Positions 386 to 17,600 of a DNA stretch of 64,000 bases are shown here, piece after piece. The translations under genes were made by a program, and so were the position numbers. The number at the start of each line of letters is the position of its first letter. Positions within the stretch are counted from its first letter, which is position 1. The notes below the pieces were generated by a model. That model saw nothing but the letters and a program-made list of their open reading frames with translations, was not told where the DNA came from and did not search any database. Source of the DNA: an uncultured Chloroflexia bacterium (GTDB taxonomy: Bacteria > Chloroflexota > Limnocylindria > QHBO01); assembly GCA_963777045.1 (NCBI GenBank), contig CAVZPD010000022.1, positions 79,591 to 143,590 of the forward strand, in the 5' to 3' direction.

Positions 386-1546
386 TCAGGCGAGCGCTCG
401 CTCGGCAGATGCGATCAGCGCGGCGAGCAGCGTGATGCGCGGAACGACGCTCGACAGGTCCAGCCACTCGTCCGCAGAGTGATCATCGCCCCCGATCGGC
501 CCCAGCCCGTCGAGCGTCGGCAGGCCGGCCGCCGCGGTGGTGTTCGCGTCCGACGCCCCGCCGGTGGCGCAATCGCGCAGGTCGAAGGCGAGCTCGGCGG
601 CGAGGCCGCGCGCGAGGTCGGACAGCCGCGCCGTCGCCGCCGATTTCTCCATGGGCGGGTGCGCGGCCAGCCGCCTCAGCTCGACGTGGACGCCGTCGAC
701 GGCGGGAGCGTGCAGCAGCCGCTCGACCTCCGCCATTGCCGCATCGAATTCGTCGGCGGCTGCAGCGCGCAGGTCCAGCGTCACCCGGCACTCGGCGGCA
801 ACCACGTTCGGCCGCGTCCCGCCCTGGATCACGCCGGCGTTCAGGGTGACGCTGGGCCAGCGCCCGTTCAGGGCGTCGAGCGCCACCACCTGGCGTGCCG
901 CGGCCAGGATCGCCGACCGCCCCTTTTCGGGCTCCACGCCCGCGTGCGCGGCGCGGCCGGTGAAGGTCGCCTCCAGGTCGGCGATCCCCTTGCGGGCGCT
1001 GACGATGTCGCCGTTGGCCCGTGCGCACTCGAGCACGAGAGCGGCGTCGTGCTGCGGCACCATCTGGCGGATGTACGGCGTGCTGAACGGCGAGCCGATC
1101 TCCTCGTCGGGGTTGGCGACGAAGGTGACATCCGGCTGGATGCCGATCTCCTGCAGCGACGCCACCGCGTGCAGTCCGGCCAGAAGGCCGCCCTTCATGT
1201 CGCTCGTTCCCGGACCGAGCGCCCGTTCGCCCTCGACCCGGAAGGGCCGCTCGGCCACCGTCCCGGGCTCGAAGACCGTGTCCATGTGGCCGATCAGCAG
1301 CAGGCGTGGCCCGTCGCCCGGGAGGCGGCCGATGACGAGATCACCCACGGGCTGGGATGGCCCCGGAGAGCGGCGCTCGACGCTCGCTCCGAGCTCTGCC
1401 AGCGAGGCCGCCACCGCATCGGCGATTCGATTCACGCCATCGGGTGTGTGCGAGCCGCAGTCGACGTTGACGAGGGCTTCGAGCTCCGCCAGGTAGCGCG
1501 CGTATCGGGCACTGACGGCCCGTGGCAGGCCCGGCGGGATCGGCAT
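386..1546 (-). CDS. M20 family metallopeptidase (carboxypeptidase G2 / ArgE-DapE-like)
   Basis: 386-aa ORF with M20 metal-binding and catalytic motifs: IGHMDTV, GTSDMKGG, NPDEEIGS, and HAG in the dimerisation-domain region. Divergent from the CphA-like gene at 1570. Confidence 0.8.
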   Translation of the reverse strand: MPIPPGLPRAVSARYARYLAELEALVNVDCGSHTPDGVNRIADAVAASLAELGASVERRSPGPSQPVGDLVIGRLPGDGPRLLLIGHMDTVFEPGTVAERPFRVEGERALGPGTSDMKGGLLAGLHAVASLQEIGIQPDVTFVANPDEEIGSPFSTPYIRQMVPQHDAALVLECARANGDIVSARKGIADLEATFTGRAAHAGVEPEKGRSAILAAARQVVALDALNGRWPSVTLNAGVIQGGTRPNVVAAECRVTLDLRAAAADEFDAAMAEVERLLHAPAVDGVHVELRRLAAHPPMEKSAATARLSDLARGLAAELAFDLRDCATGGASDANTTAAAGLPTLDGLGPIGGDDHSADEWLDLSSVVPRITLLAALIASAERALA

Positions 1547-1569
1547 GGCGCGTGAGTATACTGCCGGCC

Positions 1570-3183
1570 ATGCCGCAGGACGGGCGCTCGGACGGCGACG
1601 TGGAGCTCCTCGAACTGCGCGTCCTCGACGGCCCCAACCGATTCTTCAGGCGGCCGGCGATCAAGCTCGAGTTCGGAGCCACGGAGCCCGGTCTCGCCGA
1701 CGAGACGAGCGTCGTTGCCGGCGAGGCGGTCGAGCGCCTCCACGCGCTCCTGGACCTGCCCGTTCCGCGCCTCGCGCGACGCGGATCGGCAGACGGCCGG
1801 CGCGCACTGGTGGCCTATCCCTGGCACCGGCGAACGATCTCCCAGGCCGTCGGGGCATCCGCCGCCCGGATCGCCGTTGGTGCCAGCAGCGAACGCCGCG
1901 AGCTGCGGGGCCTGCGGGCGATGGCGCTCGGTCCCCTGCCGAGCCTTCCGGTGGCGCGCGTCCCGATCGTGGCGATCACCGGAACCAACGGCAAGAGCAC
2001 GACCACCCGACTCCTGGCCCACATCGCCACCACGGCGGGCAGGCGGGTGGGGATGACGAACTCCGACGGGATCTTCGTGGATGGGAAGCTGGTGGAGGCG
2101 GGGGACTGGACGGGCTTCGGCGGCGCCGGCCGCGTCCTTGCCGAGGACGGGATCGACCTCGCCGTCCTGGAGACGGCGCGCGGCGGGATCCTGCTGCGCG
2201 GCATCGGCTACAGCGCCAACGAGGTCGCCATCGTCACCAACGTGAGCGCCGACCACCTGGGCCTGCAGGGCATCGACACGCTCGATGAGCTCGCCGAGGT
2301 GAAGGGCGCCATCGTCCGCATCACGCGGCGGAGCGGATGGGCGGTCCTCAACGCGGAGGACGAACGGGTCTGGGCGATGCGCCGCTGGACGAGGGCCGCC
2401 CGCTACGCGTTCAGCCTCTCGCCCGACGCCGACGGCGTACGCCAGGCGCTCGAATCGGGCGGTCGCGCCGCCGTCGTGAAGGACGGCTGGCTGACGCTGC
2501 TGCGCGGGTCCCGGCGTGCCCTGCGGCTGACTCCGCTGGTCGAGGTACCCGTCACCTTCGCCGGGCTATCGACCTACAACGTGGCGAATGCGCTGGCTGC
2601 CGCTGCGGGGGCCGACGCCCTGGGCATTCGTCCGGCGCGCATCCGGCAGGGACTGCGCACCTTCACCCAGGACAGCGTCGTCAACCCGGGCAGGATGAAC
2701 CTCTTCGAGCGGAAGGGCCTGCTGGTGCTGGTTGACTTCGCCCACAACGAGGCGGGCCTGCGCGGGCTGCTGGAGGTCTGTCGCGGGCTGGCCGGCGATC
2801 GCGGGCGGGTGCGGCTTGCGCTCGGCACGGCCGGCGACAGGTCCGATGAGGTTCTGCGCAGCCTCGGCCGGCTGGCCGGCCAGGGCGCCGATGACATCGT
2901 GATCTGCGAGAAGCGTCACTACCTGCGGGGGCGGGACCTGGAGGCGATGAACAGGATCTTTCGCGACGGTGCCGCCGATGGGGGCTACCGCGACGAGATG
3001 GCTGCCCACCCCAGCGAGCTGGCCTCGCTGGAGGCGCTGCTCTCGCGCTCACGACCTGGGGACGTCGTGGCGGTCATGTCGCACGTCGAACGCAGCGAGA
3101 TCTTTTCCTGGCTCGGGGAGCAGGGGTTCGCCGCGGTCGGACCCGACCAGCTGCGCGAGCTCGTGGTGGCCGCGGGCAGCTAG
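1570..3183 (+). CDS. cyanophycin synthetase-like protein: CphA N domain fused directly to Mur-ligase-like M domain, no ATP-grasp domain
   Basis: Track ORF 1522..3183 starts at GTG and overlaps the divergent M20 start; ATG at 1570 (MPQDGRSDGDVELLELRVLDGPNRFF...) is the likelier start. The N-terminal ~130 aa align to the CphA N domain (LRVLDGPNRFFRRPAIKLE versus LRGPNYW.IRR.KLI in cyanobacterial CphA). The Mur-ligase P-loop VPIVAITGTNGKSTTTRLLAHI and the GDHLGLQGIDTLDELAEVK segment follow immediately. Paralogous to the C-terminal half of full-length cphA at 3180..6020, which has TGTNGKTTTARMIAHV and NVTGDHLGLGGITSL. There is no room for the ~320-aa ATP-grasp domain. Confidence 0.8.
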   Translation: MPQDGRSDGDVELLELRVLDGPNRFFRRPAIKLEFGATEPGLADETSVVAGEAVERLHALLDLPVPRLARRGSADGRRALVAYPWHRRTISQAVGASAARIAVGASSERRELRGLRAMALGPLPSLPVARVPIVAITGTNGKSTTTRLLAHIATTAGRRVGMTNSDGIFVDGKLVEAGDWTGFGGAGRVLAEDGIDLAVLETARGGILLRGIGYSANEVAIVTNVSADHLGLQGIDTLDELAEVKGAIVRITRRSGWAVLNAEDERVWAMRRWTRAARYAFSLSPDADGVRQALESGGRAAVVKDGWLTLLRGSRRALRLTPLVEVPVTFAGLSTYNVANALAAAAGADALGIRPARIRQGLRTFTQDSVVNPGRMNLFERKGLLVLVDFAHNEAGLRGLLEVCRGLAGDRGRVRLALGTAGDRSDEVLRSLGRLAGQGADDIVICEKRHYLRGRDLEAMNRIFRDGAADGGYRDEMAAHPSELASLEALLSRSRPGDVVAVMSHVERSEIFSWLGEQGFAAVGPDQLRELVVAAGS

Positions 3184-6020
3184 AGCTCGACCTCCGACTC
3201 GCCGATGCCGGTCACCGCTCGGAACCCCGGCGTGCCGGCGCTCGATCCGCCGTGCTGTCGATGCTGGAGCTCCTTCCAGACGTCGTTGGCGTGGTCGACG
3301 CAGACCACCACGATGTCGCCCTCCGACCCCATGTCCAGTGCCCGGCGGGTCGCCTCGAGCTCGTCGAGGATGGTCGTGATCTCTGCACAGCGCGCCCCAT
3401 CGCTCATCGCCTCGCGCCCACCCCGCTCGATCAGCGCGGCCGTCTCACCGGGCGCGCGACCGCGGTTGTTGGCGTCCTCGCGGACGATCATCGTGTCGAA
3501 GTAGCGGGCAGCCGTCCGGCCGAGCTCCACGATGTCCTCGTCCCGGCGGTCGCCCGCGGTGGCGATGACGCCGATGCGCCGGCCCGTCACCAGCGGCCGG
3601 CTGCCGCCGGGCGACGGCTTCGCCATCGAGTCCACGAACTCGCCCAGCGCCGCGACCGCGGGGGGATTGTGGGCGTAGTCGACGACGACGCGGTAGCCGT
3701 CCAGCTCGAACACGTTCAGGCGCCCGGGCGCCATGAAGTAGCTGGTCGTGAAGGTCCGCAGTCCCTGGCGGATGTCGTGCAGGTGGGAGCCAGCGGCCCA
3801 TGCCGCCGCCGTCGCCGCCAGTGCGTTCTGCACGTTCATGCGCGCCCTGCCCTCGAAGGTGGCCGGCAGGAGGTGCGTCCAGACCAGTGGCATCGACTTG
3901 CGGCCCTGGCGCAGGACGATCATCTCCCCGTTCCGACCGGGTTCCAGGGTGACGGCACGCCGGCCGCGCGACGCCTGGCGCCGCACCAGCTCGTTCTCGG
4001 CGTTCATGCTGAAGTAGATCACCGACCCGGAGCAGTGGCGCCCCATGGGCGCAACCAGCGGGTCGTCGGCGTTGAGCACCGCCACGCCGTCGCGCGGTAC
4101 GGCCTCCACCACGACCTGCTTCACGGCGGCGAGCTGCCGAAGGGAGGTGATGCCACCCAGCCCAAGGTGGTCGCCGGTCACGTTGAGGACGACCGCCACG
4201 TCGTTGCGCTGGTAGCCGAGGCCCTCGCGCAGGATGCCGCCGCGGGCCACCTCGAAGACCGCGAAGTCCACGTTCGGGTTCTGCAGCACGGTCGAGGCGG
4301 AGCGCGGCCCGGACATGTCGCCGCGTCGCACCGGCCGACCGTCAACGAAGATGCCGTCTGTCGAGGTCATGCCCACCTTGCGGCCCATGCCCTTCATGAC
4401 GTGGGCGATCATGCGTGCCGTCGTCGTCTTGCCGTTCGTGCCGGTGACCGCAACGATTGGAATCCGCGACGGCGAACCGGGCGGGAAGAGCATGTCGATG
4501 ACGGGCTTGGCCACGTACTGGGCCTCGCCCTCGGTGGGGTGGGTGTGCATCCGGAACCCGGGCGCCGCGTTGACCTCGACGATCCCGCCCCCGGTCTCCC
4601 GCACCGGGACGCTGATGTCCGGACAGACGAAGTCGATGCCGGCAATGTCGAGGCCGACCACGCGCGCCGCCAGCTCGGCGATCTCGGCGTTGTCGGGGTG
4701 GATCTCCTCGGTGCGGTCGATGCTGATCCCGCCGGTGCTCATGTTGCCCGTGCGCTTGAGGAAGACGCGCACGCCGCGCGGCGGGACGTCGCTCAGCTCG
4801 AATCCCTGCTCACGGGCGTAGGAGATCGATTCCTCGTCGACCTTGATCCGGGTGAGCACCTTCTCGTGGCCGATGCCGCGGCGCGGGTCGAGGTTCGTCT
4901 GCTCCACCAGTTGGGTCAGGGCGTGCTCCCCGTCCCCGACGACGTGCGCCGGCACCCGCTGCGCCACCGCGCGCAGCGTGCCGCCGATGACGAGGCAGCG
5001 GTAGTCGTTGCCGGCCAGGAACGTCTCGACCACCACGCCGCCGCGACGCGATTCGGAACGGGCGTGCGCGTAGCCGGCTCGCACGGCACCTTCGTCGGCG
5101 AGGTTCAGCATGACGCCACGCCCGTGGTTGCCGTCCAGGGGCTTGACCGCCACCGGGAAGCCGATGCTGATTGCCGCCGTGACCGCTTCGTCCTCGCTGC
5201 CCACAACCTCGGCGCGAGGGACCGGGGCGCCGGCGCCGCCCAGCAGCTTGTTCGTCAGCTTCTTGTCCGACGCGATGTCGACGCCGAGCGAGCCGGTCTG
5301 GCTGGTCATGGTGGCGCGGATACGGCGCTGGTGAACGCCGTGGCCGAGCTGCACCAGCGACTGCTCGTTGAGGCGGATCCAGGGAATGTCGCGCAGCGCG
5401 GCCTCGTCCAGGATCGACTGCGTCGATGGCCCGAATGCGGCGCGCTCGGCGAGCAGGACGAGCCGCTCGAACTCGGCGACGAAGTCGAAGTCCGGATCGG
5501 GCTCGACCAGGTGGTTGATCGTGCGCACGGCAAGTCGTCCGGCTGCGACGCCGACCGATTCCTCGGCGTACGAGTAGACGACGTGGTAGCGGCCCGGCTC
5601 GCCCGTGCTGCGCGTCTTGCCACGACCCACTTCGGTGCCGGCGTCCCGCTGCAGCTGCAGGGCGATGTGCTCGGCCACGTGCCCGGCCCACGTACCCTCC
5701 CGCAACCGCTGCTCGAAGCCCCCTACCTTGCCCGTGGAGCAGGAGTGCTGTCCGATGCCGGGGAGCATGTCGAGCAGCCCGTCCACGAAGCCCGGAATCG
5801 TGTTGGAGGGGAAGTCCTCGAGCACGCCAAGGTCGACGATGAGCTTGATCGCCGGCTCGTAGTTCCAGTAGTTCGGGCCGCGATAGACGCGCGTCTCGAG
5901 GATGCGCAGGGTCGCCGCCGGCGTGGAGCGCGCGCGCCGCGCCTTCCCGGCCTCGGCCTTGGCGACCGATGCACGCGAGATCGGCTTGGGCGCCTTCGGT
6001 CGCGTCCGGCCCGACGTCAC
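3180..6020 (-). CDS. cphA: cyanophycin synthetase CphA (N + ATP-grasp G + Mur-ligase-like M domains)
   Basis: 946-aa ORF with an N domain (LRILETRVYRGPNYWNYEPAIKLIVDL) and an ATP-grasp segment (FPVAVKPLDGNHGRGVMLNL, GGIVEVNAAPGFRMHT). A Mur-ligase P-loop (IVAVTGTNGKTTTARMIAHV), DHLGLGG, and the YAHNPPAVAALGEF C-terminal domain follow. The ATG at 6018-6020 overlaps the cphB stop (ATGA coupling). There is a basic AKP-rich N-terminal extension of ~35 aa. Confidence 0.92.
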   Translation of the reverse strand: MTSGRTRPKAPKPISRASVAKAEAGKARRARSTPAATLRILETRVYRGPNYWNYEPAIKLIVDLGVLEDFPSNTIPGFVDGLLDMLPGIGQHSCSTGKVGGFEQRLREGTWAGHVAEHIALQLQRDAGTEVGRGKTRSTGEPGRYHVVYSYAEESVGVAAGRLAVRTINHLVEPDPDFDFVAEFERLVLLAERAAFGPSTQSILDEAALRDIPWIRLNEQSLVQLGHGVHQRRIRATMTSQTGSLGVDIASDKKLTNKLLGGAGAPVPRAEVVGSEDEAVTAAISIGFPVAVKPLDGNHGRGVMLNLADEGAVRAGYAHARSESRRGGVVVETFLAGNDYRCLVIGGTLRAVAQRVPAHVVGDGEHALTQLVEQTNLDPRRGIGHEKVLTRIKVDEESISYAREQGFELSDVPPRGVRVFLKRTGNMSTGGISIDRTEEIHPDNAEIAELAARVVGLDIAGIDFVCPDISVPVRETGGGIVEVNAAPGFRMHTHPTEGEAQYVAKPVIDMLFPPGSPSRIPIVAVTGTNGKTTTARMIAHVMKGMGRKVGMTSTDGIFVDGRPVRRGDMSGPRSASTVLQNPNVDFAVFEVARGGILREGLGYQRNDVAVVLNVTGDHLGLGGITSLRQLAAVKQVVVEAVPRDGVAVLNADDPLVAPMGRHCSGSVIYFSMNAENELVRRQASRGRRAVTLEPGRNGEMIVLRQGRKSMPLVWTHLLPATFEGRARMNVQNALAATAAAWAAGSHLHDIRQGLRTFTTSYFMAPGRLNVFELDGYRVVVDYAHNPPAVAALGEFVDSMAKPSPGGSRPLVTGRRIGVIATAGDRRDEDIVELGRTAARYFDTMIVREDANNRGRAPGETAALIERGGREAMSDGARCAEITTILDELEATRRALDMGSEGDIVVVCVDHANDVWKELQHRQHGGSSAGTPGFRAVTGIGESEVEL

Positions 6021-7009
6021 TCGCTCGCCTCCTCTTCCTTGCGACGGGCGTACAGCTCCCGGCGCCGTGCGCGTTCGGGGGCCGTGTCGTCCGCGCCCTC
6101 GGCGGCGATGCGGCGGATCAGCCGTCGCGTGACCGCTCCGGCGCGCTCCAGCTGGGCGAGCTCGCGCTCGCTGGCCGAAACGGGGCGCAGCGGTGCCAGC
6201 AGGCGACGCTTGCGCAGGTCGAATCGGTAGCCCGAGGGGAGGGAGTGGAGGATGACCCCGCTGATCATCATCGGCCGGTGGCGCTTGACCTCGTAGGCGT
6301 CCGTCTGGATCCGGGCCGGGTCCAGGATCATGACCGACCCCTTGCCGATGACCTCAACGACATGCGCCGGTGAGACGAGGGCGGCGGTGTCCTCGTCGAT
6401 GCCGATCCCCAGCAGGGCGGGCGACTGGGCCACCAGCGCGAGCAGCCGTCCAAGGCGGTTGCGCTGCTCGAAGTGCTGGTCGATGATCACGCCCGGCAGG
6501 AGCCCCAGTCCGGCGCTCATCTGCGTCATGCGCTGCTTTGGGGTCGGGCCGCTGGTGCCGAACGCCACCATATGGCTGCTGATGGCCGAGGCGCCCGCGC
6601 TGGTGCCCGCCACGATGCAGCCGCGCCGGTGTCGTTCCACGATGGCACGCCCAAGCGCCGTGCCCCCGATCACGCTCGAGAGGCGCAGCTGGTTACCGCC
6701 GGTCATGAAGATCCCCGTCACGTCGTCGAGGGCATCGGACACCTCTCCGTTGTTGGCCTCCTCACGGGTCAGCGGGCGGAGGCCGCGGACGTCGGGAACG
6801 CCCATCTGGTGGAAGAGCGACTGGTAGAGATTGGTGGCCTCGTCGCCGAGCGAGGACGCCGTCGAGATCACCGCGACCCGCGCGTCGCCGCCGCCGGCGA
6901 GCGTGACGAAGCGGGAGAGGATCTGCCGCTGACGCAGCTTGTCCTCCGCGCCTCCGATGATCAGCAGGTGCCCGGCTCGGGCACGGCCGGGGCGAGATTG
7001 GGCGGCCAT
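6017..7009 (-). CDS. cphB: cyanophycinase (peptidase S51) CphB
   Basis: The track ORF 6017..8245 (742 aa) is a spurious 5' extension. The cyanophycinase domain starts at M413 of that ORF (MAAQSRPGRARAGHLLIIGGAEDK...), giving a start at 7009. S51 motifs are present: GGAEDK, FMTGGNQ, IVAGTSAGASAISSHMVAFG and GLGLLPGVIIDQHF. The upstream extension overlaps the J-domain gene on the opposite strand. Confidence 0.85.
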   Translation of the reverse strand: MAAQSRPGRARAGHLLIIGGAEDKLRQRQILSRFVTLAGGGDARVAVISTASSLGDEATNLYQSLFHQMGVPDVRGLRPLTREEANNGEVSDALDDVTGIFMTGGNQLRLSSVIGGTALGRAIVERHRRGCIVAGTSAGASAISSHMVAFGTSGPTPKQRMTQMSAGLGLLPGVIIDQHFEQRNRLGRLLALVAQSPALLGIGIDEDTAALVSPAHVVEVIGKGSVMILDPARIQTDAYEVKRHRPMMISGVILHSLPSGYRFDLRKRRLLAPLRPVSASERELAQLERAGAVTRRLIRRIAAEGADDTAPERARRRELYARRKEEEASE

Positions 7010-7075
7010 GTGTCCGGCAGCATACCCAATGGCGGTGGCGAGGCGAACGTGGAGCGGTCGTCGTATGCTCAGCGG

Positions 7076-8278
7076 ATGGTCAGCGGATCCGTGGGCGACG
7101 AGGGTCGGGACATCCAGCTCGAGCAGCGCGACTTCTACGCGGTGCTGGGCGCCGAGCCGTCCGCGACCGTCGACGAGCTGCGGAGCGCCTTCCGCGAGGC
7201 GGTCCTGAGGCACCACCCCGATCGCAGCGCCGCGGGTGGCCTCGCCACGCGGCGGACCTCGATCCTCAACCGCGCCTGGGCGGAGCTCCGCGACCCGCTG
7301 CGGCGGCTGCACTACGACCACGCGCTCGAACGTGGGCAGGCCGAGACGCTCTCCTGGCCGCTGGAGCCCGACGAGCCGTCGCGCGCGCGCGCCCGGCCGC
7401 GACGGATCCGGCCCGATCGGCCGAGCCGCTGGCACCAGCCGCAGTGGCGCAACGTGGCCGGCTTCCGCGTCCCGGCCGACGTCTTCATGGCAGGCCCCGT
7501 GCAGCAAAGGGCGTGGATCGTGGAGCACCACATCGCCGGCGAGGACTGGCGCGAGCACTCCGAGCACTACTGGCTGCGCTACGCGGCCGGGTACTACCGC
7601 GAACGTGGCCGTTACGACGACTGGCTGGGAACGCTCGAGCGCCTGATCCGCCTCGACGGCGGCTACGAGACGCTCGTACGTGCCGCCATGCGGCAGGCGT
7701 ACGTCTTTACCGGGTCGTACCTGCGCGGCGTCGGCTTCCTGCGCGAGATGGCACAGCGCTACATGCCCGAGAGTCCTCCGCGTCGCTGGGTCGACCGCGA
7801 GCTGCGCGCCCTGCTCGCCGAATTCCGCGACCAGCGGGTGCGACGTGGCCGGCCCGATGATCGGGCAGAGGCGGCCGAGCTGCTGCTGAACTTCCTCGAG
7901 GCGCTCGGTCTGGAGGCCAGCTTTCCGGACGTCCGGGCCGCGATCTCCGCCCACCGTCGTGCCGGCCACCCCGGCCGCGCCGCAGAGCTGGTCGAACGGG
8001 TCAGTCGTGAGCCGGTGCGCGATGCCGCGCGCTGGTTCAGCCTGGTGCAGCTGCTGACCGAGGCGGGGCAGCTCGACCGTGCCTCCGAGCTCCTGGCGGC
8101 CATCGCGCGCGGGGACCACCCGGAGGCGCTCGATCGGCGGCGTCTCGCGGGTGACCCGATCCGCCGCATTGGAGCCGCGCGGCAGCGGCTCGCACGGGCG
8201 CGCCTCCGGCAGCAGCGCGAGCGGCGCCTGCGGGACGGCAAGCAAGAGATGGCCGCGGTCGGGGCCGCTGCGTCGTGA
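7076..8278 (+). CDS. J-domain (DnaJ-like) protein with helical C-terminal region
   Basis: J domain with an HPD motif: DFYAVLGAEPSATVDELRSAFREAVLRHHPDRSAAGG...LNRAWAELRDPLRRLHYD. The first in-frame ATG giving a sensible N-terminus is at 7076 (M202 of track ORF 6473..8278); the earlier part is an Arg-rich overlap antisense to cphB. The C-terminal ~300 aa are Leu/Arg/Ala-rich and helical (TPR-like). Confidence 0.7.
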   Translation: MVSGSVGDEGRDIQLEQRDFYAVLGAEPSATVDELRSAFREAVLRHHPDRSAAGGLATRRTSILNRAWAELRDPLRRLHYDHALERGQAETLSWPLEPDEPSRARARPRRIRPDRPSRWHQPQWRNVAGFRVPADVFMAGPVQQRAWIVEHHIAGEDWREHSEHYWLRYAAGYYRERGRYDDWLGTLERLIRLDGGYETLVRAAMRQAYVFTGSYLRGVGFLREMAQRYMPESPPRRWVDRELRALLAEFRDQRVRRGRPDDRAEAAELLLNFLEALGLEASFPDVRAAISAHRRAGHPGRAAELVERVSREPVRDAARWFSLVQLLTEAGQLDRASELLAAIARGDHPEALDRRRLAGDPIRRIGAARQRLARARLRQQRERRLRDGKQEMAAVGAAAS

Positions 8279-9732
8279 GACTGGGCGGTGTCGGCGTCGG
8301 TCGGATCCTGACCGGCGTGGCGTTCGGCGCCCTCGCCGCCGCCGGCGGGGCGGTGCTCGGCGAGATCACCGGCGAGTCAACATTCGCCGTGCTCCCACTC
8401 CTCGCGGTCGCGCTGGTGGGTCTGACGCTGGGGCCCGCCGCCGCGATGACCACCTACGCCATCGCAGGCGGATCACTCATCGTCCAGGGCATCGTCGTCC
8501 AGCACGAGCTGGTGAGCGCCGCCAACCTGGCGCGCGTGACCCTCTTCGTCGTCGGCGCGCCGATCATCGTGCTCCTGGCGCTCCGGGTCGAGCGCCAGCA
8601 CAGCGAGAGCCGGCTGGCCCAGGACATGAGCGCCGCCGCCGAGCGCATGGCGAATCGCGAGCGGAGCGCGGCCGACGAGGCGCGACGTGACCTGCAGGTC
8701 GCGCTACAGCAGGTCGAGCGCGAGCGCACGCGGCTGGAGGAGGTGGCCGAGGCGATTCCCGAGCCGCTCATCGTGTACGACGCCGATGGACAGGGAACCT
8801 ACGCGAACCGTGCCGCGCTGCGCACCTTCGGCCGCAGCTTCTACGACCGGCCCCTGGACGAGTGGGGGCGTCTCGCGGAACCGCGCGACGATCGAGGACA
8901 GCCGCTGCCGATGCGCGACTGGCCGCAGGTGCGCGCCAGGGACGCCGTCACCAAGCGCCGGATGGTGATCCGCCTCCCCATGTCCGGCCGGGATCTGCTG
9001 GTCGACGTCGAGGGGACGCCGGTCCCGGACGGCGGTTGCGTCCTCCTCCTGCGGGACGTCGGCAAGGAGGTCGACGAGCGTCGCCGGCTGTCTCGCTTCG
9101 CGAGCTTCGTCGCGCACGAGCTGCGTAACCCGCTGGCGGTGGCCAAGGCCCGCATCGAGCTCGGCGCTCGCGCGAGCACCAGTGATGCCGGCACCCCCTC
9201 GCACGGACAGCGCGCGCTGGAGTCGGTCGATGCGGCAATCGCCATCCTCGATCGCCTCGAGCTCTTCTCCCGCGCCGAGGCCGGTCGCCTCGAGGCCGAG
9301 CTGCAGCCGTTCGACCTGCGGGAGGCGGCGAACGCGTCCGTGGAGCGGCTACGCGCCAGCGGCAGCGAGCGCCAGGTGGAGGTCAGCGTCAGCGGCGACC
9401 CGATGGTGGGTGGCGACCTGCAGCTGACCCAGCAGGCACTCACCAACCTGCTCACCAACGCCGATCGCTACTCCACCGACGGCGCACCGATCCGGGTCGA
9501 GATCAACGGCGGAGTCGCGCCCGAGCTGCGCGTGCGGGACGGCGGCCCGGGCGTCAGCGCCGACGTGGCCGAGCACCTCTTCATCGAGCGCGTCAGCTCC
9601 GGTCGCGGCCTCGGCCTCGGCCTCTACCTCGTCCGCGCCGCCATGGAGGCGCAGGGCGGCATCGTCAGGCTCGAGGAGCGAGCGCCTGCGGCGGTGTTCC
9701 TGTTGCGCTGGCCGCGACGCGAGGAGCCTTGA
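8275..9732 (+). CDS. sensor histidine kinase (membrane-anchored, PAS-like + HisKA + HATPase_c)
   Basis: The N-terminal region is hydrophobic (several TM helices), followed by a coiled coil. The PAS-like segment reads LIVYDADGQGTYANRAALRTFG. The H-box is FVAHELRNPLAVAKARIEL. The C-terminal ATP lid contains GGPGVSADVAEHLFIERVSSGRGLGLGLYLVRA. The GTG start at 8275 overlaps the J-domain gene stop (GTGA). No response regulator gene is adjacent. Confidence 0.8.
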   Translation: MRLGGVGVGRILTGVAFGALAAAGGAVLGEITGESTFAVLPLLAVALVGLTLGPAAAMTTYAIAGGSLIVQGIVVQHELVSAANLARVTLFVVGAPIIVLLALRVERQHSESRLAQDMSAAAERMANRERSAADEARRDLQVALQQVERERTRLEEVAEAIPEPLIVYDADGQGTYANRAALRTFGRSFYDRPLDEWGRLAEPRDDRGQPLPMRDWPQVRARDAVTKRRMVIRLPMSGRDLLVDVEGTPVPDGGCVLLLRDVGKEVDERRRLSRFASFVAHELRNPLAVAKARIELGARASTSDAGTPSHGQRALESVDAAIAILDRLELFSRAEAGRLEAELQPFDLREAANASVERLRASGSERQVEVSVSGDPMVGGDLQLTQQALTNLLTNADRYSTDGAPIRVEINGGVAPELRVRDGGPGVSADVAEHLFIERVSSGRGLGLGLYLVRAAMEAQGGIVRLEERAPAAVFLLRWPRREEP

Positions 9733-9744
9733 GGCGGTCTCGCC

Positions 9745-11100
9745 TCAGGCGCTGACCACCTCCACCTCCGCCAGCTGCGCCGCCTCGATCTCGTCGCGAA
9801 TGCGCGCAGCGTCGCCGGTCACCAGCATGAGCAGGTCGTCGGGGCGGATGAGGTCGCGCGCGGCCGACACGACGTCCTCCGGTCCGACCGCCTCGATCTG
9901 CTGCCGGTAGGTCTGCCAGTAGTCGTCGGGCAGGGCGTAGGTGGCGAGAGGCTCGATCGCCGTGGCGACACCCCCAGTCGTCTCGAAGCGGAGGGGGAAG
10001 ACGCCGACCAGGAAGTCGCGGACCTCCCGAAGCTCTCCGAGCTCGGGTGCCGCCGCCCTGACGTGCTCCAGCTGCGCCAGCATCTCGCGCATCGCATCGG
10101 CCGTGACCTCGGTCTGCACCGCGGCGGCGGCTGAGAATGGGCCGGCCGCGCGGCGCGCGTCGAATCCGGCGCGTGCTCCGTAGGTGTAGCCCAGCTCCTC
10201 GCGCAGCCGGAGGTTGAGCCGCGACCCGAAGACGCCGCCCAGCATGGCCGCCATGACCATGGCCGGGAAGTAGCGATCAGAGGTGCGCGAGATGCCGGGG
10301 TGTCCCATGCGCAGCTCGCTCTGCACCGATCCTGGACGATCGACGATGACCACGCGCCGACGGCCGGCCGGCCGGGTCTCGAAGGTGCGGTGACCCGCAC
10401 CGGTCCCCTCCCAGGCGCCGAGCTGCATCTGTGCCAGCCGCTCGATCGTCTCCGGATCGACGGCCCCGGCCACGACCAGGTGCGCCATCCCCGGGCGCCA
10501 GTGCGCCGCGTGGTGGGCACGCACGTCCTCGAGCGTGACGCCGCCAACGCTCTCCGGCGTGCCGGCCGAGAGGCGCCGGTAGGGCGTGGCGGCATCGAAG
10601 ACGTGGCGCAGGAACATCTCCTCGGCCAGCCGCCCGGGATCGGCGCGGGACTGGCGGATGTCGTTGAGCCGCTCCGCCTGCAGCCGCTTGAACTCGGCGG
10701 GGTCGAAACGAGGCTCCAGGATCATCTCCGCCAGCAGCCCGAAGCCCTCCTCCAGGTGTTCGGGGAGCGACTGGAAGGCGGCGCGCGCAGAATCCCAACT
10801 GGACTCGGAGCTGACCTCGATGCCCAGCCGCTCGGTCGCCTCGGCGAAGGCGGAGGCGTCCAGCCGCCGCGTTCCGGTGGTGAGCATCTGTGCAGTCAGG
10901 TAGGCGACGCCTGCGTGCTCTTCGTCCTCTGCCGCCGCGCCCGCATCGGCCAGCAGGTGAGCGTTCACCATGGTGGCGCCGGGCAGTGAGACCGCCCAGA
11001 TCGTCAGGCCGTTCGGCAGCCGGCGGCGGTCGAATTCGGGGAAGAGGTAGGGCCTTGGTGCACCTGGCGTCGGGCGCAGCGGGTTGGGGGCCGTGGTCAT
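9745..11100 (-). CDS. M16 family peptidase, non-catalytic (inactive) subunit
   Basis: The track ORF 9745..11466 is extended 5'. M123 ([10 protein letters not shown]...) at 11100 overlaps the stop of the upstream M16 gene (ATGA). The fold is insulinase-like, but the HxxEH zinc motif is replaced (AYLTAQML). Confidence 0.8.
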   Translation of the reverse strand: MTTAPNPLRPTPGAPRPYLFPEFDRRRLPNGLTIWAVSLPGATMVNAHLLADAGAAAEDEEHAGVAYLTAQMLTTGTRRLDASAFAEATERLGIEVSSESSWDSARAAFQSLPEHLEEGFGLLAEMILEPRFDPAEFKRLQAERLNDIRQSRADPGRLAEEMFLRHVFDAATPYRRLSAGTPESVGGVTLEDVRAHHAAHWRPGMAHLVVAGAVDPETIERLAQMQLGAWEGTGAGHRTFETRPAGRRRVVIVDRPGSVQSELRMGHPGISRTSDRYFPAMVMAAMLGGVFGSRLNLRLREELGYTYGARAGFDARRAAGPFSAAAAVQTEVTADAMREMLAQLEHVRAAAPELGELREVRDFLVGVFPLRFETTGGVATAIEPLATYALPDDYWQTYRQQIEAVGPEDVVSAARDLIRPDDLLMLVTGDAARIRDEIEAAQLAEVEVVSA

Positions 11101-12479
11101 CCGGCCACCCCCTCGGCAACCATCTCGGCCGATTCGGCGGGCACGGGCAGGTAGGTCAGGACCAGGCGGTTGTCTGGCCGAAGGGTGTCGCGCATGGCGT
11201 TCACGACCCGGTCTGCATCGACCGCCAGGTAGCGGCTCACCTCGCTGTTGATACGTTCGGGGTCGTCGAAGAGGCAGGTGTACATCGAGAGGCGATCGGC
11301 GCGCTCGGCGATTCGCTCCAGGCTGGACTCCACCGATGACGCGTGGAGGTTGCGCACGCGCTCCAGCTCCTCGTCGGACGGACCCTCGCCGGCCAGGCGA
11401 TCGATCTCGTCCAGCAGGGCGGCTTCGAGCGCATCGGCTTCGATGCCCTCGCGTGCCGTACCCCACAGCGTGAACATCGACGCCCCGCCGACGATCGGAA
11501 AGGGGAAGACACTGACGTCGCCGGCCAGCTGTCGCTCCCGGACGAGGCTGCGGTACATCCGCGACGCACGACCGGACCCCAGCAGGTCGGCGGCGACCAT
11601 GAGCGCCTCGAAGGCATCGGTGCCGAAGACCGGCATGCGATGGGCGAGGTAGACCCGCGGCAGCGGCACGCGATCTTGGACCACCTCCCGCACTTCGCGG
11701 CCGATGCGCGGCGCCACCTCCATGGGTGGAGCGGGCGGTAGCGAGGTGTTGGCGGGGATCGATCCGAAGTGTCGTTCGATCATGGCCAGCGCGGCAGCCG
11801 GCTCGAAATCGCCGGCCACGGTGAGCACTGCGTTGTTCGGGGCGTAGTACGTGGCGAAGAAGTCGGAGACGTCCTCGAGGCTCGCCGCGTCGAGATCATC
11901 CATGGACCCGATGGTCGAGTGGTGGTAGGGATGCCCGTCCGGGTAGACGAGCTCCTGGATCTTCTCGTCCCAGGTCCCGTACGGCTGGTTGTCGACCGAC
12001 CAGCGACGCTCGTTCTTGACCACCTCGCGCTGGTTGTCGAGCTTCTCCTGGGTCATCGCCGGCAGCAGGGAGGCGAGGCGATCTGCCTCGAGCCATAGTC
12101 CCAGCTCCAGCTCGTGACTCGGCAGCGTCTCGAAGTAGTTGGTCCGGTCCAGCCAGGTTGACGCGTTGAGCGTGCCTCCCGCAGCCTGCACCAGCGCGAA
12201 GTGCTCGCCCTTGGCGACGTGTTCGGAGCCCTGGAACATCATGTGCTCGAAGAGGTGGGCGAACCCCGTCTTGCCGGCCCTCTCGTGCTTGCTCCCGACG
12301 TCGTACCACAGGTTCACGGCCACGATCGGTGCGAGGTCGCCGCGGGACAGCACCACGCGCAGCCCGTTCGGCAGCTGGTGGCGTTCGATTGGGACGTGGG
12401 GCACGACAGTCTTCCTCGGCGTTCGGGGGTGAGATGAGCGCGGTCCGACGTCGGTGCGAGGCCGTGACGGGGCCGCCAT
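11097..12479 (-). CDS. M16 family zinc peptidase (pitrilysin/insulinase-like), catalytic subunit
   Basis: The inverted zinc-binding motif [11 protein letters not shown] (HxxEH) is present, plus insulinase-like N-terminal conservation (LPNGLRVVL). Tandem with, and translationally coupled to, the downstream inactive paralog. Confidence 0.85.
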
Positions 12480-12564: not shown

Positions 12565-13281
12565 ATGTTGTCCGGTCGACAGGCTGCCGCGATGTTCGTG
12601 CCACTGCTGGCGTTGCTGCTCGTGGGCGTCATCGTGGTGCGCGGTCTCGCTGGCATCATCTCGCCGGGAGCGTCTTCCCCCGAGCCCGCGCCGACACTGC
12701 GCCCTGGGATGGCCGTGCCGCTGCCGACCGCCACACCGACGCCGCTCCCGTTCAGTCTGCCACCGATCACCGTGACCCCGCCGCCGACGCCCACCGCCGC
12801 GCCAACCTCCACGCCAACCCCGACCGCCGCCCCGACGCGTCGCCCGACGCCGCAACCGACACCACGACCCACCCCGGCGCCCACCCCCACGCCGACTCCT
12901 ACGCCTACGCCCACGCCCACGCCGACGCCTACGCCCACGCCCACGCCGAAGCCGACGCCCTCGCCGACACCTACGCCCACCCCCACCCCCACGCCGATGC
13001 CCACGCCGACACCTACGCCCACGCTGGCGCCCACCCCGCCGCCGACGCCCACGCCACCCGACGCCGACCCCCACCCCCACGCCGACGCCGACTGTTCCAC
13101 CGCCGCCGAGCCCGACGGCCACGCCAGTTCCTGCATCGTCTCCCACGCCTACGGTCCAGGCCTCAGCTACGCCCGCGGCCTGACGCGCACTGCCGGGCAC
13201 GAAAAAGCCCCGCGTGCCGAGGCTGCGGGGCCCATGACCGGGAGGTGGTTGTTGGTGAGCGGCCAGGGATTCGAACCCTGA
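12565..13281 (+). CDS. membrane-anchored Pro/Thr-rich repeat protein (hypothetical)
   Basis: ATG at 12565 is preceded by tgaagg. A short N-terminal segment is followed by a TM helix ([15 protein letters not shown]) and ~130 aa of (P-T)n low-complexity linker. GC3 bias favours this strand over the mirror GV-repeat ORF. The 3' end overlaps the antisense tRNA-Lys, so the C-terminus is uncertain. Confidence 0.45.
12700..13085 (+). repeat. coding hexanucleotide (ACGCCx)n Pro-Thr tandem repeat tract with a 24-nt higher-order unit
   Basis: Direct reading shows long runs of acgccgacgcctacgcccacgcccacgccg encoding TPTPTP. Confidence 0.8.
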
Positions 13282-13327
13282 ACCTAGTGATTAAGAGTCA
13301 CTTGCTCTGCCGTTGAGCTAGCCGCCC
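13253..13327 (-). tRNA. tRNA-Lys (anticodon CTT)
   Basis: Reverse complement of 13253-13327 gives GGGCGGC-TA-GCTC-AACGGCA-GAGC-A-AGTGA-CTCTTAA-TCACT-AGGTT-CAGGG-TTCGAAT-CCCTG-GCCGCTC-A-CCA. All four stems pair (one G-U in the acceptor). T-loop TTCGAAT and U33 are present. The anticodon is CTT and CCA is encoded. Confidence 0.85.
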
Positions 13328-17516: not shown

Positions 17517-17600
17517 GGGCGAGTGGCGGAACGGCAGACGCGCCGGCCTTAGGAGCCGGTGTCGCAAGACGTGCGAGTTCGAATCTCGCCTCGCCCACCA
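17517..17600 (+). tRNA. tRNA-Leu (anticodon TAG), type II with long variable arm
   Basis: GGGCGAG-TG-GCGGAACGGCAGACGC-G-CCGGC-CTTAGGA-GCCGG-TGTCGCAAGACGT-GCGAG-TTCGAAT-CTCGC-CTCGCCC-A-CCA. Acceptor, anticodon and T stems all pair. The TGGCGGAA...AGACGC D-arm is typical of Leu, and the long variable arm marks a type II tRNA. Confidence 0.85.

Follow-up and report, generated by a model that had tools for sequence, protein, structure and literature searches.

A cyanophycin synthetase-like protein with N and M domains and no ATP-grasp domain, encoded convergently to cphA1 in a Limnocylindria genome

The DNA analysed here, called the window throughout, is a stretch of 64,000 nucleotides from contig CAVZPD010000022.1 of an uncultured Chloroflexia bacterium (GTDB class Limnocylindria; assembly GCA_963777045.1, positions 79,591 to 143,590), and close to its beginning lies a gene for a relative of cyanophycin synthetase (CphA). 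The encoded protein consists of a reduced N domain of the CphA type that runs directly into a complete Mur ligase-like M domain, itself made of a central ATPase part (Mcore) and a C-terminal lid (Mlid), and it has no ATP-grasp (G) domain; this protein and its relatives are termed N-M here. The N-M gene is convergent with cphA1, which encodes a full-length synthetase and is followed by the cyanophycinase gene cphB, and it is divergent from a gene for an M20 metallopeptidase, the start codons of these two genes being 23 bp apart (Table 1). The G+C content of the N-M gene region is about 72%, and the closest database relatives of the window protein come mostly from metagenome-assembled genomes (MAGs) of "Candidatus Limnocylindria" (Chloroflexota). 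The longest reading of the open reading frame (ORF) extends from 1522 to 3183 (GTG start, 553 amino acids), and the ATG at 1570 is the start common to N-M orthologs (alignment of 24 sequences, with the consensus 'MP...'). An initial annotation of this DNA had described a gene for 537 amino acids convergent to a complete cphA, and this description holds: the ORF from ATG 1570 is intact, the neighbouring CphA1 reaches 1151.7 bits with the cyanophycin synthetase model TIGR02068 (cut-off 850), and the stop codons of the two genes overlap in the tetranucleotide CTAG. The same 4-nt overlap is present in two orthologous loci (L001, 9605-9608, and L002, 7365-7368), and the convergent arrangement leaves no intergenic space for terminators. 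In the neighbouring CphA1, Pfam recognizes Cyanophycin_syn, ATP-grasp families, Mur_ligase_M and Mur_ligase_C, and the catalytic residues of its M domain are intact.

When the N-M protein was scanned with Pfam, it matched PF08245 (Mur_ligase_M, 69.6 bits) and PF02875 (Mur_ligase_C, 47.2 bits), both over cut-off, and no ATP-grasp family at E<=0.1. TIGR02068 covers the protein only via model positions 477-848, which correspond to the M domain (380.6 bits, E 1.4e-113, against the cut-off of 850), and model positions 1-476 have no match in it. The best MurE model gave 108 bits against a cut-off of 373 (E 4e-31), and TIGR01085 gave 107.3 against 257.3. The identity to the neighbouring CphA1 is 41% across the M domain (BLASTP), and CphA1 structures rank first for this domain in both sequence and fold searches of the PDB; MurE structures also align to the protein in the fold search, over about 440 columns. 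The AlphaFold2 model of the full-length protein (predicted local distance difference test score, pLDDT, 84.2) has N-domain elements at residues 11-119 that are directly followed by the P-loop strand at 133-137, and therefore there is no room for a G domain. The P-loop itself, GTNGKSTT, occupies residues 138-145 (nucleotides 1981-2004), and the N domain's GPN motif is separated from the P-loop by 121 residues in the window protein and by 121-208 residues in 19 loci. These results agree with the earlier statements that the N domain runs straight into the Mur ligase P-loop at about residue 135, that a G domain has no space, and that the C-terminal Mur ligase domain is intact, as seen from its PF02875 match and from the 13 key residues described below. 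It had also been expected that a domain scan would return CphA_N together with Mur_ligase_M and Mur_ligase_C and without ATP-grasp; the Mur ligase matches and the lack of ATP-grasp were found, and a CphA_N match was not.

The N-M N terminus is homologous to the CphA N domain, as profile-profile comparison, AlphaFold2 modelling with Foldseek and tblastn agree. Plain searches with hidden Markov models (HMMs) cannot reveal this homology and are useful only for finding distant N-M members: Pfam PF18921 gave no N-domain match in the window protein or in eight distant N-M members, and an HMM of 30 Limnocylindria N-M N termini found nothing at E<=10 among all PDB sequences, while the 104 matches of the same HMM among 1.84 billion representatives included none of CphA1 length. 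BLASTP of the N terminus against the neighbouring CphA1 matched 18 of 45 positions (E 0.003 for that single comparison), and the alignment by hhalign of 31 N-M N termini with 45 CphA1 N domains reached a probability of 97.1% (E 5.5e-11, 142 columns). The AlphaFold2 model of the isolated N terminus has a pLDDT of 90.5, and its top 14 matches in the PDB by Foldseek belong without exception to CphA1 or CphA2 (E 1.5e-5 to 5.9e-3, query TM-score 0.45-0.63), with no Mur ligase among the listed fold matches; a MurE-type N-terminal domain, considered as an alternative, is thus ruled out by the fold searches. In the tblastn search, the N domain of the window CphA1 matched the N-M N terminus of locus L053 with 28% identity over 170 amino acids. 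The motif that opens the domain, R-x-L-x-G-P-N (LRVLDGPN, residues 16-23 of the window protein), has its R, L, G and N invariant in the N-M family, and its counterpart in CphA1 is RVYRGPN. The structure prediction that had been proposed earlier gave a confident N-terminal model with CphA1 and CphA2 as best matches, and the claim of a recognisable CphA N domain stands in part: the homology and the motif are there, but Pfam and HMM searches are blind to a domain that is minimal and divergent.

The Limnocylindria members carry a minimal version of the N domain, in which about 35-50 residues between strand 2 and helix 1 are gone according to the profile alignment. In CphA1, the counterpart of the missing segment carries the primer-generating metallopeptidase site Cx19HxxEH, which is the mark of primer-independent CphA1 (PMC9262961); HxxEH was found in none of the 31 N-M N domains. 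The charge of the domain differs between lineages. Members from Limnocylindria, Chloroflexia and Actinomycetota have a strongly basic one (net +2 to +15, pI about 10-12), the values for the window lineage being net +4 to +9 and pI 10.9-11.8, as opposed to -3 to -6 and pI 5.3-6.1 in the N domain of the partner CphA1. In Acidobacteria, Lysobacterales, Plesiocystis and Gammaproteobacteria, and also in the Sphaerobacteraceae member of locus L015, it is strongly acidic (-13 to -16, pI about 4.4). The partner CphA1 N domains are mildly acidic throughout the N-M loci (L001-L070).

All 13 of the ATP-binding, Mg-binding and catalytic residues examined are kept in 27 of 27 N-M proteins, across phyla: K142 and S/T143 of the P-loop, E201, D228, H229, K245, R375, H392, N393, D423, R424, R453 and R455. 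Among them, K245 aligns with the carbamylated lysine of Mur ligases. In TeCphA1, ATP is bound by Lys499 and Thr500 of the P-loop, Thr522 and Glu558 (Mg2+), and Arg731 and His748 of Mlid (PMC9427784), and the equivalents in N-M are K142, S143, S165, E201, R375 and H392, with a serine/threonine exchange at two of the positions. Over the whole M domain, conservation in CphA1 reaches 90% or more in 87 columns, and N-M proteins conserve the identical residue in 49 of these. At the level of residues, this conservation argues for what would be a working ATP-dependent ligase and against a pseudo-enzyme.

Table 1. Positions of the features in the window and of the N-M reading frames fused to TPR_5 in other loci
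Feature	Position	Strand	Basis
N-M gene, 537-aa CphA paralog without G domain	1570..3183	+	ORF list, ortholog-aligned start, Pfam/NCBIfam domains
Reduced CphA-type N domain, about residues 10-120, beta-beta-alpha-beta-beta-alpha-alpha, pI about 10.9, no HxxEH	1597..1929	+	
LRVLDGPN, R-x-L-x-G-P-N motif opening the N domain	1615..1638	+	
Mcore, Mur ligase central ATPase domain, about residues 128-365	1951..2664	+	Pfam PF08245, residue mapping
Mlid, Mur ligase C-terminal domain, about residues 374-504	2689..3081	+	Pfam PF02875
CTAG, overlapping stops of convergent N-M and cphA1	3180..3183	.	sequence
cphA1, full-length cyanophycin synthetase 1 (N, G and M), partner gene	3180..6020	-	TIGR02068 and Pfam
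Cx19HxxEH metallopeptidase motif, N domain of partner CphA1	5667..5741	-	motif search; meaning from PMC9262961
cphB, cyanophycinase (330 aa from MAAQSRPG)	6017..7009	-	TIGR02069 252.8 bits and Peptidase_S51; start from ortholog lengths
M20 metallopeptidase gene, divergent from N-M gene	386..1546	-	Pfam, NCBIfam, synteny
-10-like hexamer TATACT, 7 nt upstream of N-M ATG	1557..1562	+	sequence
N-M ORF with TPR_5, locus L011	9914-12190		
N-M ORF with TPR_5, locus L010	about 2444-4630		
N-M ORF with TPR_5, locus L009	about 10001-12247		

Full-length orthologs of the window protein form at least 118 clusters at 90% identity, are 531-568 amino acids long and are 66-82% identical. When the window gene is compared with two orthologs, the ratio of nonsynonymous to synonymous substitution rates (dN/dS) comes to 0.32-0.39 in the N domain and 0.28-0.32 in the M domain, and the two orthologs compared with each other give 0.61 and 0.27, respectively, all of these values being rough since dS is high; the gene is intact and under purifying selection in both domains. 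More distant members (37-54% identity) are found in Kribbella, Terrabacter, Nocardioides, several Actinomycetota MAGs, Thermomicrobiales, Sphaerobacteraceae and Chloroflexia. A subtype that opens with "RRLTGPN", comprising at least 120 clusters and about 570 amino acids long, is found in Acidobacteria, Lysobacterales, Plesiocystis pacifica and one Gammaproteobacteria MAG, so that N-M relatives occur in Chloroflexota, Actinomycetota, Gammaproteobacteria (Lysobacterales), Acidobacteriota and Myxococcota. An N-terminal profile search of a set of 5.8 billion proteins, which returned mostly short metagenomic fragments and is good for taxon names and not for counts, named N-M fragments from Planctomycetota, Gemmatimonadota, Thermoanaerobaculia, Xanthomonadales and others.

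In a neighbour-joining tree of M domains (27 from N-M and 45 from CphA1, including the neighbouring CphA1; 72 sequences, 392 columns), the N-M clade is split from the CphA1 clade in 99 of 100 bootstraps, and the mean identity of the M domains is 45% within N-M, 48% within CphA1 and 36% between the two. Since the two kinds of M domain fall into separate clades, N-M is a paralogous family of long standing rather than a copy of the adjacent gene, and a recent duplication of the neighbouring cphA1, tried as an explanation, is ruled out by the tree. The initial annotation had regarded the protein as a paralog of the adjacent M domain and not as a fragment of it, and had asked whether its M domain would form its own clade or prove to be a recent duplicate; the first view is confirmed by the sequence identity to that domain, the hundreds of full-length orthologs, the dN/dS below 1 and the separate clade, and the tree decides the second question for a clade of its own. 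The proteobacterial subtype aligns with the first G-domain segment of CphA1 (hhalign probability 89%, E 2.2e-6), reading "nP.LLALq.AA..gVpFLwDDd.vSvG.G" in N-M and "GPSTgsIV.eA..R.IP.iRLn..SLVQlG.G" in CphA1, a putative remnant consistent with descent from a CphA1-like ancestor in which the ATP-grasp core was deleted. Two orthologs are outliers in length: P0004 (644 amino acids) has a duplication of about 100 residues in Mcore that is probably an assembly artefact, and P0077 (918 amino acids) has a mis-called start, which extends it upstream across the M20 gene on the antisense strand. A C-terminal TPR_5 domain (PF12688, about 165 amino acids, E 7.9e-24) is fused to N-M in Intrasporangiaceae-type members, from Terrabacter and a related Actinomycetales MAG, which hints at a possible protein-protein interaction. 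In the source annotations, N-M proteins are named "Mur ligase family protein", "UDP-N-acetylmuramyl tripeptide synthase" or, wrongly, "cyanophycin synthetase"; NCBIfam has no model specific for the N-M protein, and the family is mis-annotated at scale.

The N-M gene is linked to genes of cyanophycin metabolism. In about 20 loci with enough flanking sequence, cphA1 lies 0-8 kb from the N-M gene, and cphB was also detected in most of them; these loci span Kribbella, Terrabacter, Actinomycetota MAGs, Thermomicrobiales, Chloroflexia, Limnocylindria, Acidobacteria, Lysobacterales, Plesiocystis and a Gammaproteobacteria MAG, and the search for the same architecture beside cphA, which had been suggested at the outset, was thus positive in several phyla. 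The Limnocylindria loci share the order M20 peptidase, N-M, cphA1, cphB, a synteny that counts for little because these genomes are close relatives. N-M and cphA1 are also adjacent and convergent in an Actinomycetota MAG (L005), in Thermomicrobiales (L013), in Chloroflexia (L026) and in MAG L016; the distance is 1-2 kb in Terrabacter (L010, L011) and in L053, and 5-8 kb in Kribbella, L007 and L009. The genes between N-M and cphA1 in Kribbella, which encode an ECF (extracytoplasmic function) sigma factor, a Dyp peroxidase and PCuAC, were considered as partners and rejected, as they look like unrelated insertions. In the proteobacterial-type loci, N-M stands directly downstream of cphA1 on the same strand. 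One example is the Lysobacterales MAG of locus L030 (6496-13177), in which an amidohydrolase gene, cphB, cphA1 and N-M are co-directional, with 9 bp between the last two, and the amidohydrolase is possibly an IadA-type isoaspartyl dipeptidase. The N-M gene was found in only 5 of about 60 cphA1-centred loci from the same scan, and it is therefore an accessory, not a universal, gene of cph clusters.

On the other side of the N-M gene, an M20/carboxypeptidase-G2-like gene is the divergent neighbour in Limnocylindria and in the Chloroflexia MAG of locus L026 (8721-9825), and it was not seen in the N-M loci of Actinomycetota or Proteobacteria. Its best NCBIfam match is PRK06133 with 289.9 bits, under the cut-off of 349, and the product may act as a lineage-specific dipeptidase on beta-Asp-Arg or as an enzyme that removes side chains. 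The -10-like hexamer in the short spacer between the two genes is part of a palindrome, AGTATACT (1555-1562), which also lies 8 nt from the ATG of the M20 gene. TATACT or CATACT is present 6-7 nt before the N-M start in L001, L002 and L003, the rest of the spacer having diverged, and no Shine-Dalgarno-like sequence occurs in 1546-1570, between the M20 and N-M starts. This palindromic element suggests that M20 and N-M may be expressed from back-to-back leaderless mRNAs, and the upstream peptide 'SILPAMP' or 'NILTPMP' that appears in some gene calls is the -10-like DNA element translated.

Divergent beside cphB lies a gene for a DnaJ-domain protein of about 400 amino acids with a weak TPR match (7073-8278, + strand), which is kept only in the Limnocylindria loci (the window and L001-L003) and is followed by a gene for a HisKA sensor kinase (8275..9732). 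The DnaJ-TPR and M20 neighbours were both considered as general partners of N-M and ruled out, each being lineage-specific. The sole Rfam or ARAGORN matches in the window are tRNA-Lys(CTT) (13253-13327, - strand) and tRNA-Leu(TAG) (17517-17600, + strand).

Among the known systems, CphA1 (PDB 7LG5 and 7WAE) shares with N-M the homologous N fold, the R-x-L/Y-x-G-P-N start, a complete M domain with Mcore and Mlid, and the clusters that include cphB. Unlike CphA1, N-M has no G domain, has an N domain of about 110 amino acids without Cx19HxxEH, which in the window lineage is basic rather than mildly acidic, falls into a separate M clade, stays under the TIGR02068 cut-off and does not conserve several Mlid residues that are invariant in CphA1. 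CphA2 keeps N and G, has only a truncated M domain and polymerises beta-Asp-Arg dipeptides (PMC10273328). Compared with CphA2 (PDB 7TA5 and 8FXH), N-M thus shows the opposite loss, as it lacks G and has a complete M domain with its C-terminal lid. Like N-M, Mur ligases (MurC-F, MurE) consist of a substrate-binding N-terminal domain followed by a central ATPase domain and a C-terminal domain, and the catalytic motifs of the latter two are shared. Nevertheless, the N-M protein begins with a CphA-type N domain and not with the UDP-MurNAc-binding domain 1 of MurC-F, it scores far below the MurE, MurF, MurC and MurD cut-offs, and its genomic context is cyanophycin metabolism, whereas that of MurC-F is the dcw cluster. 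Tandem cphA/cphA' pairs, in which a CphA paralog with reduced domains stands beside a full one, are already described in Betaproteobacteria, and to this extent they are similar to the N-M locus; however, cphA' keeps N and G and loses part of M, and N-M loses G and has a complete M domain. Such tandem cphA genes occur here in betaproteobacterial and Polyangiaceae loci (L062, L064, L065, L068, L069, L076, L077, L080 and L082), with a shortened M domain in the upstream copy, and Cx19HxxEH was not found in the checked cphA copy of most of the tandem-cphA loci. The open full-text literature searched, including a 2023 bioinformatic survey of cyanophycin genes and three structural papers, and with subscription journals, among them key papers, mostly outside its coverage, makes no mention of an N-M or G-less form, in line with the initial view that the architecture is undescribed. 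The most fitting description of N-M is that of a new architectural variant in the lineage of cyanophycin synthetase.

The M domain of CphA1 uses ATP to phosphorylate the free beta-carboxylate of the C-terminal Asp and then joins Arg to it. In CphA1, Mcore touches the N domain of its own chain, and a (beta-Asp-Arg)n-Asn analogue is bound between N and Mcore (PMC9427784). As both N and M are kept from CphA1, N-M retains exactly the module of the side-chain half-reaction. From this module and its genomic context we infer the catalytic activity, acyl substrate, amine identity and physiological role of N-M as follows. The protein would be a stand-alone ATP-dependent isopeptide (side-chain) ligase, whose N domain and Mcore would hold an Asp-terminated cyanophycin or poly-Asp chain, and it would activate the free Asp beta-carboxylate with ATP and form an isopeptide bond to an incoming amino acid. 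In the simplest case, the default amine would be Arg, and N-M would act in trans beside the complete CphA1 without lengthening the backbone, the loss of the G domain making backbone elongation by N-M implausible as far as can be judged from its domains. The initial annotation had proposed a loading of side chains with no growth of the backbone, and the kept catalytic residues and the linkage to cph clusters are in keeping with it. We consider the chances to be slightly better than even that N-M is a side-chain ligase of this kind, which would work in trans on poly-Asp or Asp-terminated cyanophycin and take Arg as its amine by default.

Several observations weigh against this proposal. No biochemical or genetic data for any N-M member were found in the literature searched. 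The partner CphA1 has an intact M domain and Cx19HxxEH in every N-M locus that could be checked, and therefore no missing activity obviously needs to be complemented; complementation of a defective partner CphA1, taken up as a candidate role, is ruled out for the same reason. R826, D829, D849 and D909 (numbering of the window CphA1), four Mlid residues whose conservation in CphA1 is at least 90%, are not conserved in N-M, and Mcore has two family-wide switches, from S574 in CphA1 to G185 in N-M and from V641 to T252, so that the amine pocket or the partner contacts may differ from those of CphA1. The split between basic and acidic N domains is not explained by one common polymer-binding mode. 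Finally, L015 has no cphA1 within 3.4 kb upstream or 10 kb downstream, and it is the only locus with usable flanks that shows no nearby cphA1.

The changed Mlid residues and the Mcore switches, together with a partner M domain that already works and next to which a redundant Arg ligase adds little, would also be in keeping with a modifying or capping ligase that has another substrate, either placing a non-Arg amine (Lys, Orn, citrulline, Glu or other) on Asp side chains or re-loading Arg on stripped poly-Asp, and so giving a variant or rechargeable polymer. In SuCphA1, E607 contacts the polymer (PMC9262961), and in the alignment R250 of N-M sits at this position; along with the very basic N domain, it suggests an acidic substrate such as un-arginylated poly-Asp, and the divergent M20 peptidase gene in two Chloroflexota classes likewise speaks for a modifying ligase. 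On the other hand, the non-conserved Mlid residues could be contacts to the G domain or within the tetramer that N-M can dispense with, the acidic N domains of the proteobacterial-type members contradict a general preference for poly-anions, and the M20 neighbour is lineage-specific, and we hold this explanation to be unlikely. Lower still is the probability of a non-catalytic partner or regulator. Such a protein would ligate nothing; it would bind ATP, Arg or cyanophycin and influence CphA1, CphB or granule formation, for example via hetero-oligomers or scaffolding. The tetramer-building contacts made by the CphA1 Mcore (PMC9427784), the tight gene linkage with overlapping stop codons, and the C-terminal TPR_5 in Terrabacter and one Actinomycetales MAG are consistent with such a role, which is nevertheless improbable given that all checked ATP, Mg and catalytic residues are kept in the 27 members, a conservation unexpected for a pseudo-enzyme. 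Slightly more improbable is a primer or dipeptide synthetase that ligates Arg to free Asp, or to very short peptides, at the beta-carboxyl and supplies CphA1 with the resulting beta-Asp-Arg units or short primers. M-type chemistry without a polymerase domain, the converse of the CphA2 architecture, would suit this activity, as would a minimal N domain without the groove residues for long cyanophycin segments (the C59-E90 region of CphA1), but each partner CphA1 checked already has the primer-providing Cx19HxxEH, the partner in N-M loci is CphA1 and not CphA2, and the retention of the N domain in every member suggests a polymeric substrate.

An ordinary peptidoglycan-type (MurE-like) or unrelated Mur-family enzyme that merely happens to lie near cphA1 would account for the Pfam result, which is limited to Mur_ligase_M and Mur_ligase_C, for the names given in the source annotations and for the long alignment with MurE structures; it is very improbable and is largely refuted by the far stronger match to the cyanophycin synthetase model than to MurE (E 1.4e-113 against 4e-31), by an N terminus resembling CphA N domains instead of the UDP-binding domain 1 of Mur ligases, and by a linkage to cphA1, and usually to cphB, that recurs across phyla. 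That the gene is a decaying fragment of a duplicated cphA, or an artefact of assembly, is hardly credible. Loss of G from a CphA-like ancestor did give rise to it, with a remnant of a G segment in the proteobacterial type, but the ORF is intact, its length is constant over hundreds of orthologs, both domains evolve with dN/dS below 1, the clade is deep and separate, and the same gene order is found in independent assemblies; conservation and dN/dS rule the pseudogene out.

Cyanophycin metabolism, as currently understood, consists of two synthetases (CphA1 and CphA2), cyanophycinases and dipeptidases, and the N-M family suggests an additional, unrecognised enzymatic step. A broader interpretation, which we offer tentatively and regard as rather doubtful, is that N-M proteins are a third functional class after CphA1 and CphA2, in which side-chain loading is uncoupled from backbone synthesis. 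Poly-Asp would then serve as a rechargeable scaffold, from which Arg or another amino acid is stripped and on which it is re-loaded, the polymer itself being kept (with the M20 peptidase perhaps doing the stripping in Chloroflexota), or else non-Arg variants of cyanophycin would be made. Kribbella and Terrabacter are N-M carriers that can be cultured. If N-M proteins do act as side-chain ligases in trans, they would give mechanistic work a natural M module that stands alone, and would be a tool for tailored polymers based on poly-Asp, and the composition and turnover of the polymer in non-cyanobacterial producers would have to be viewed differently.

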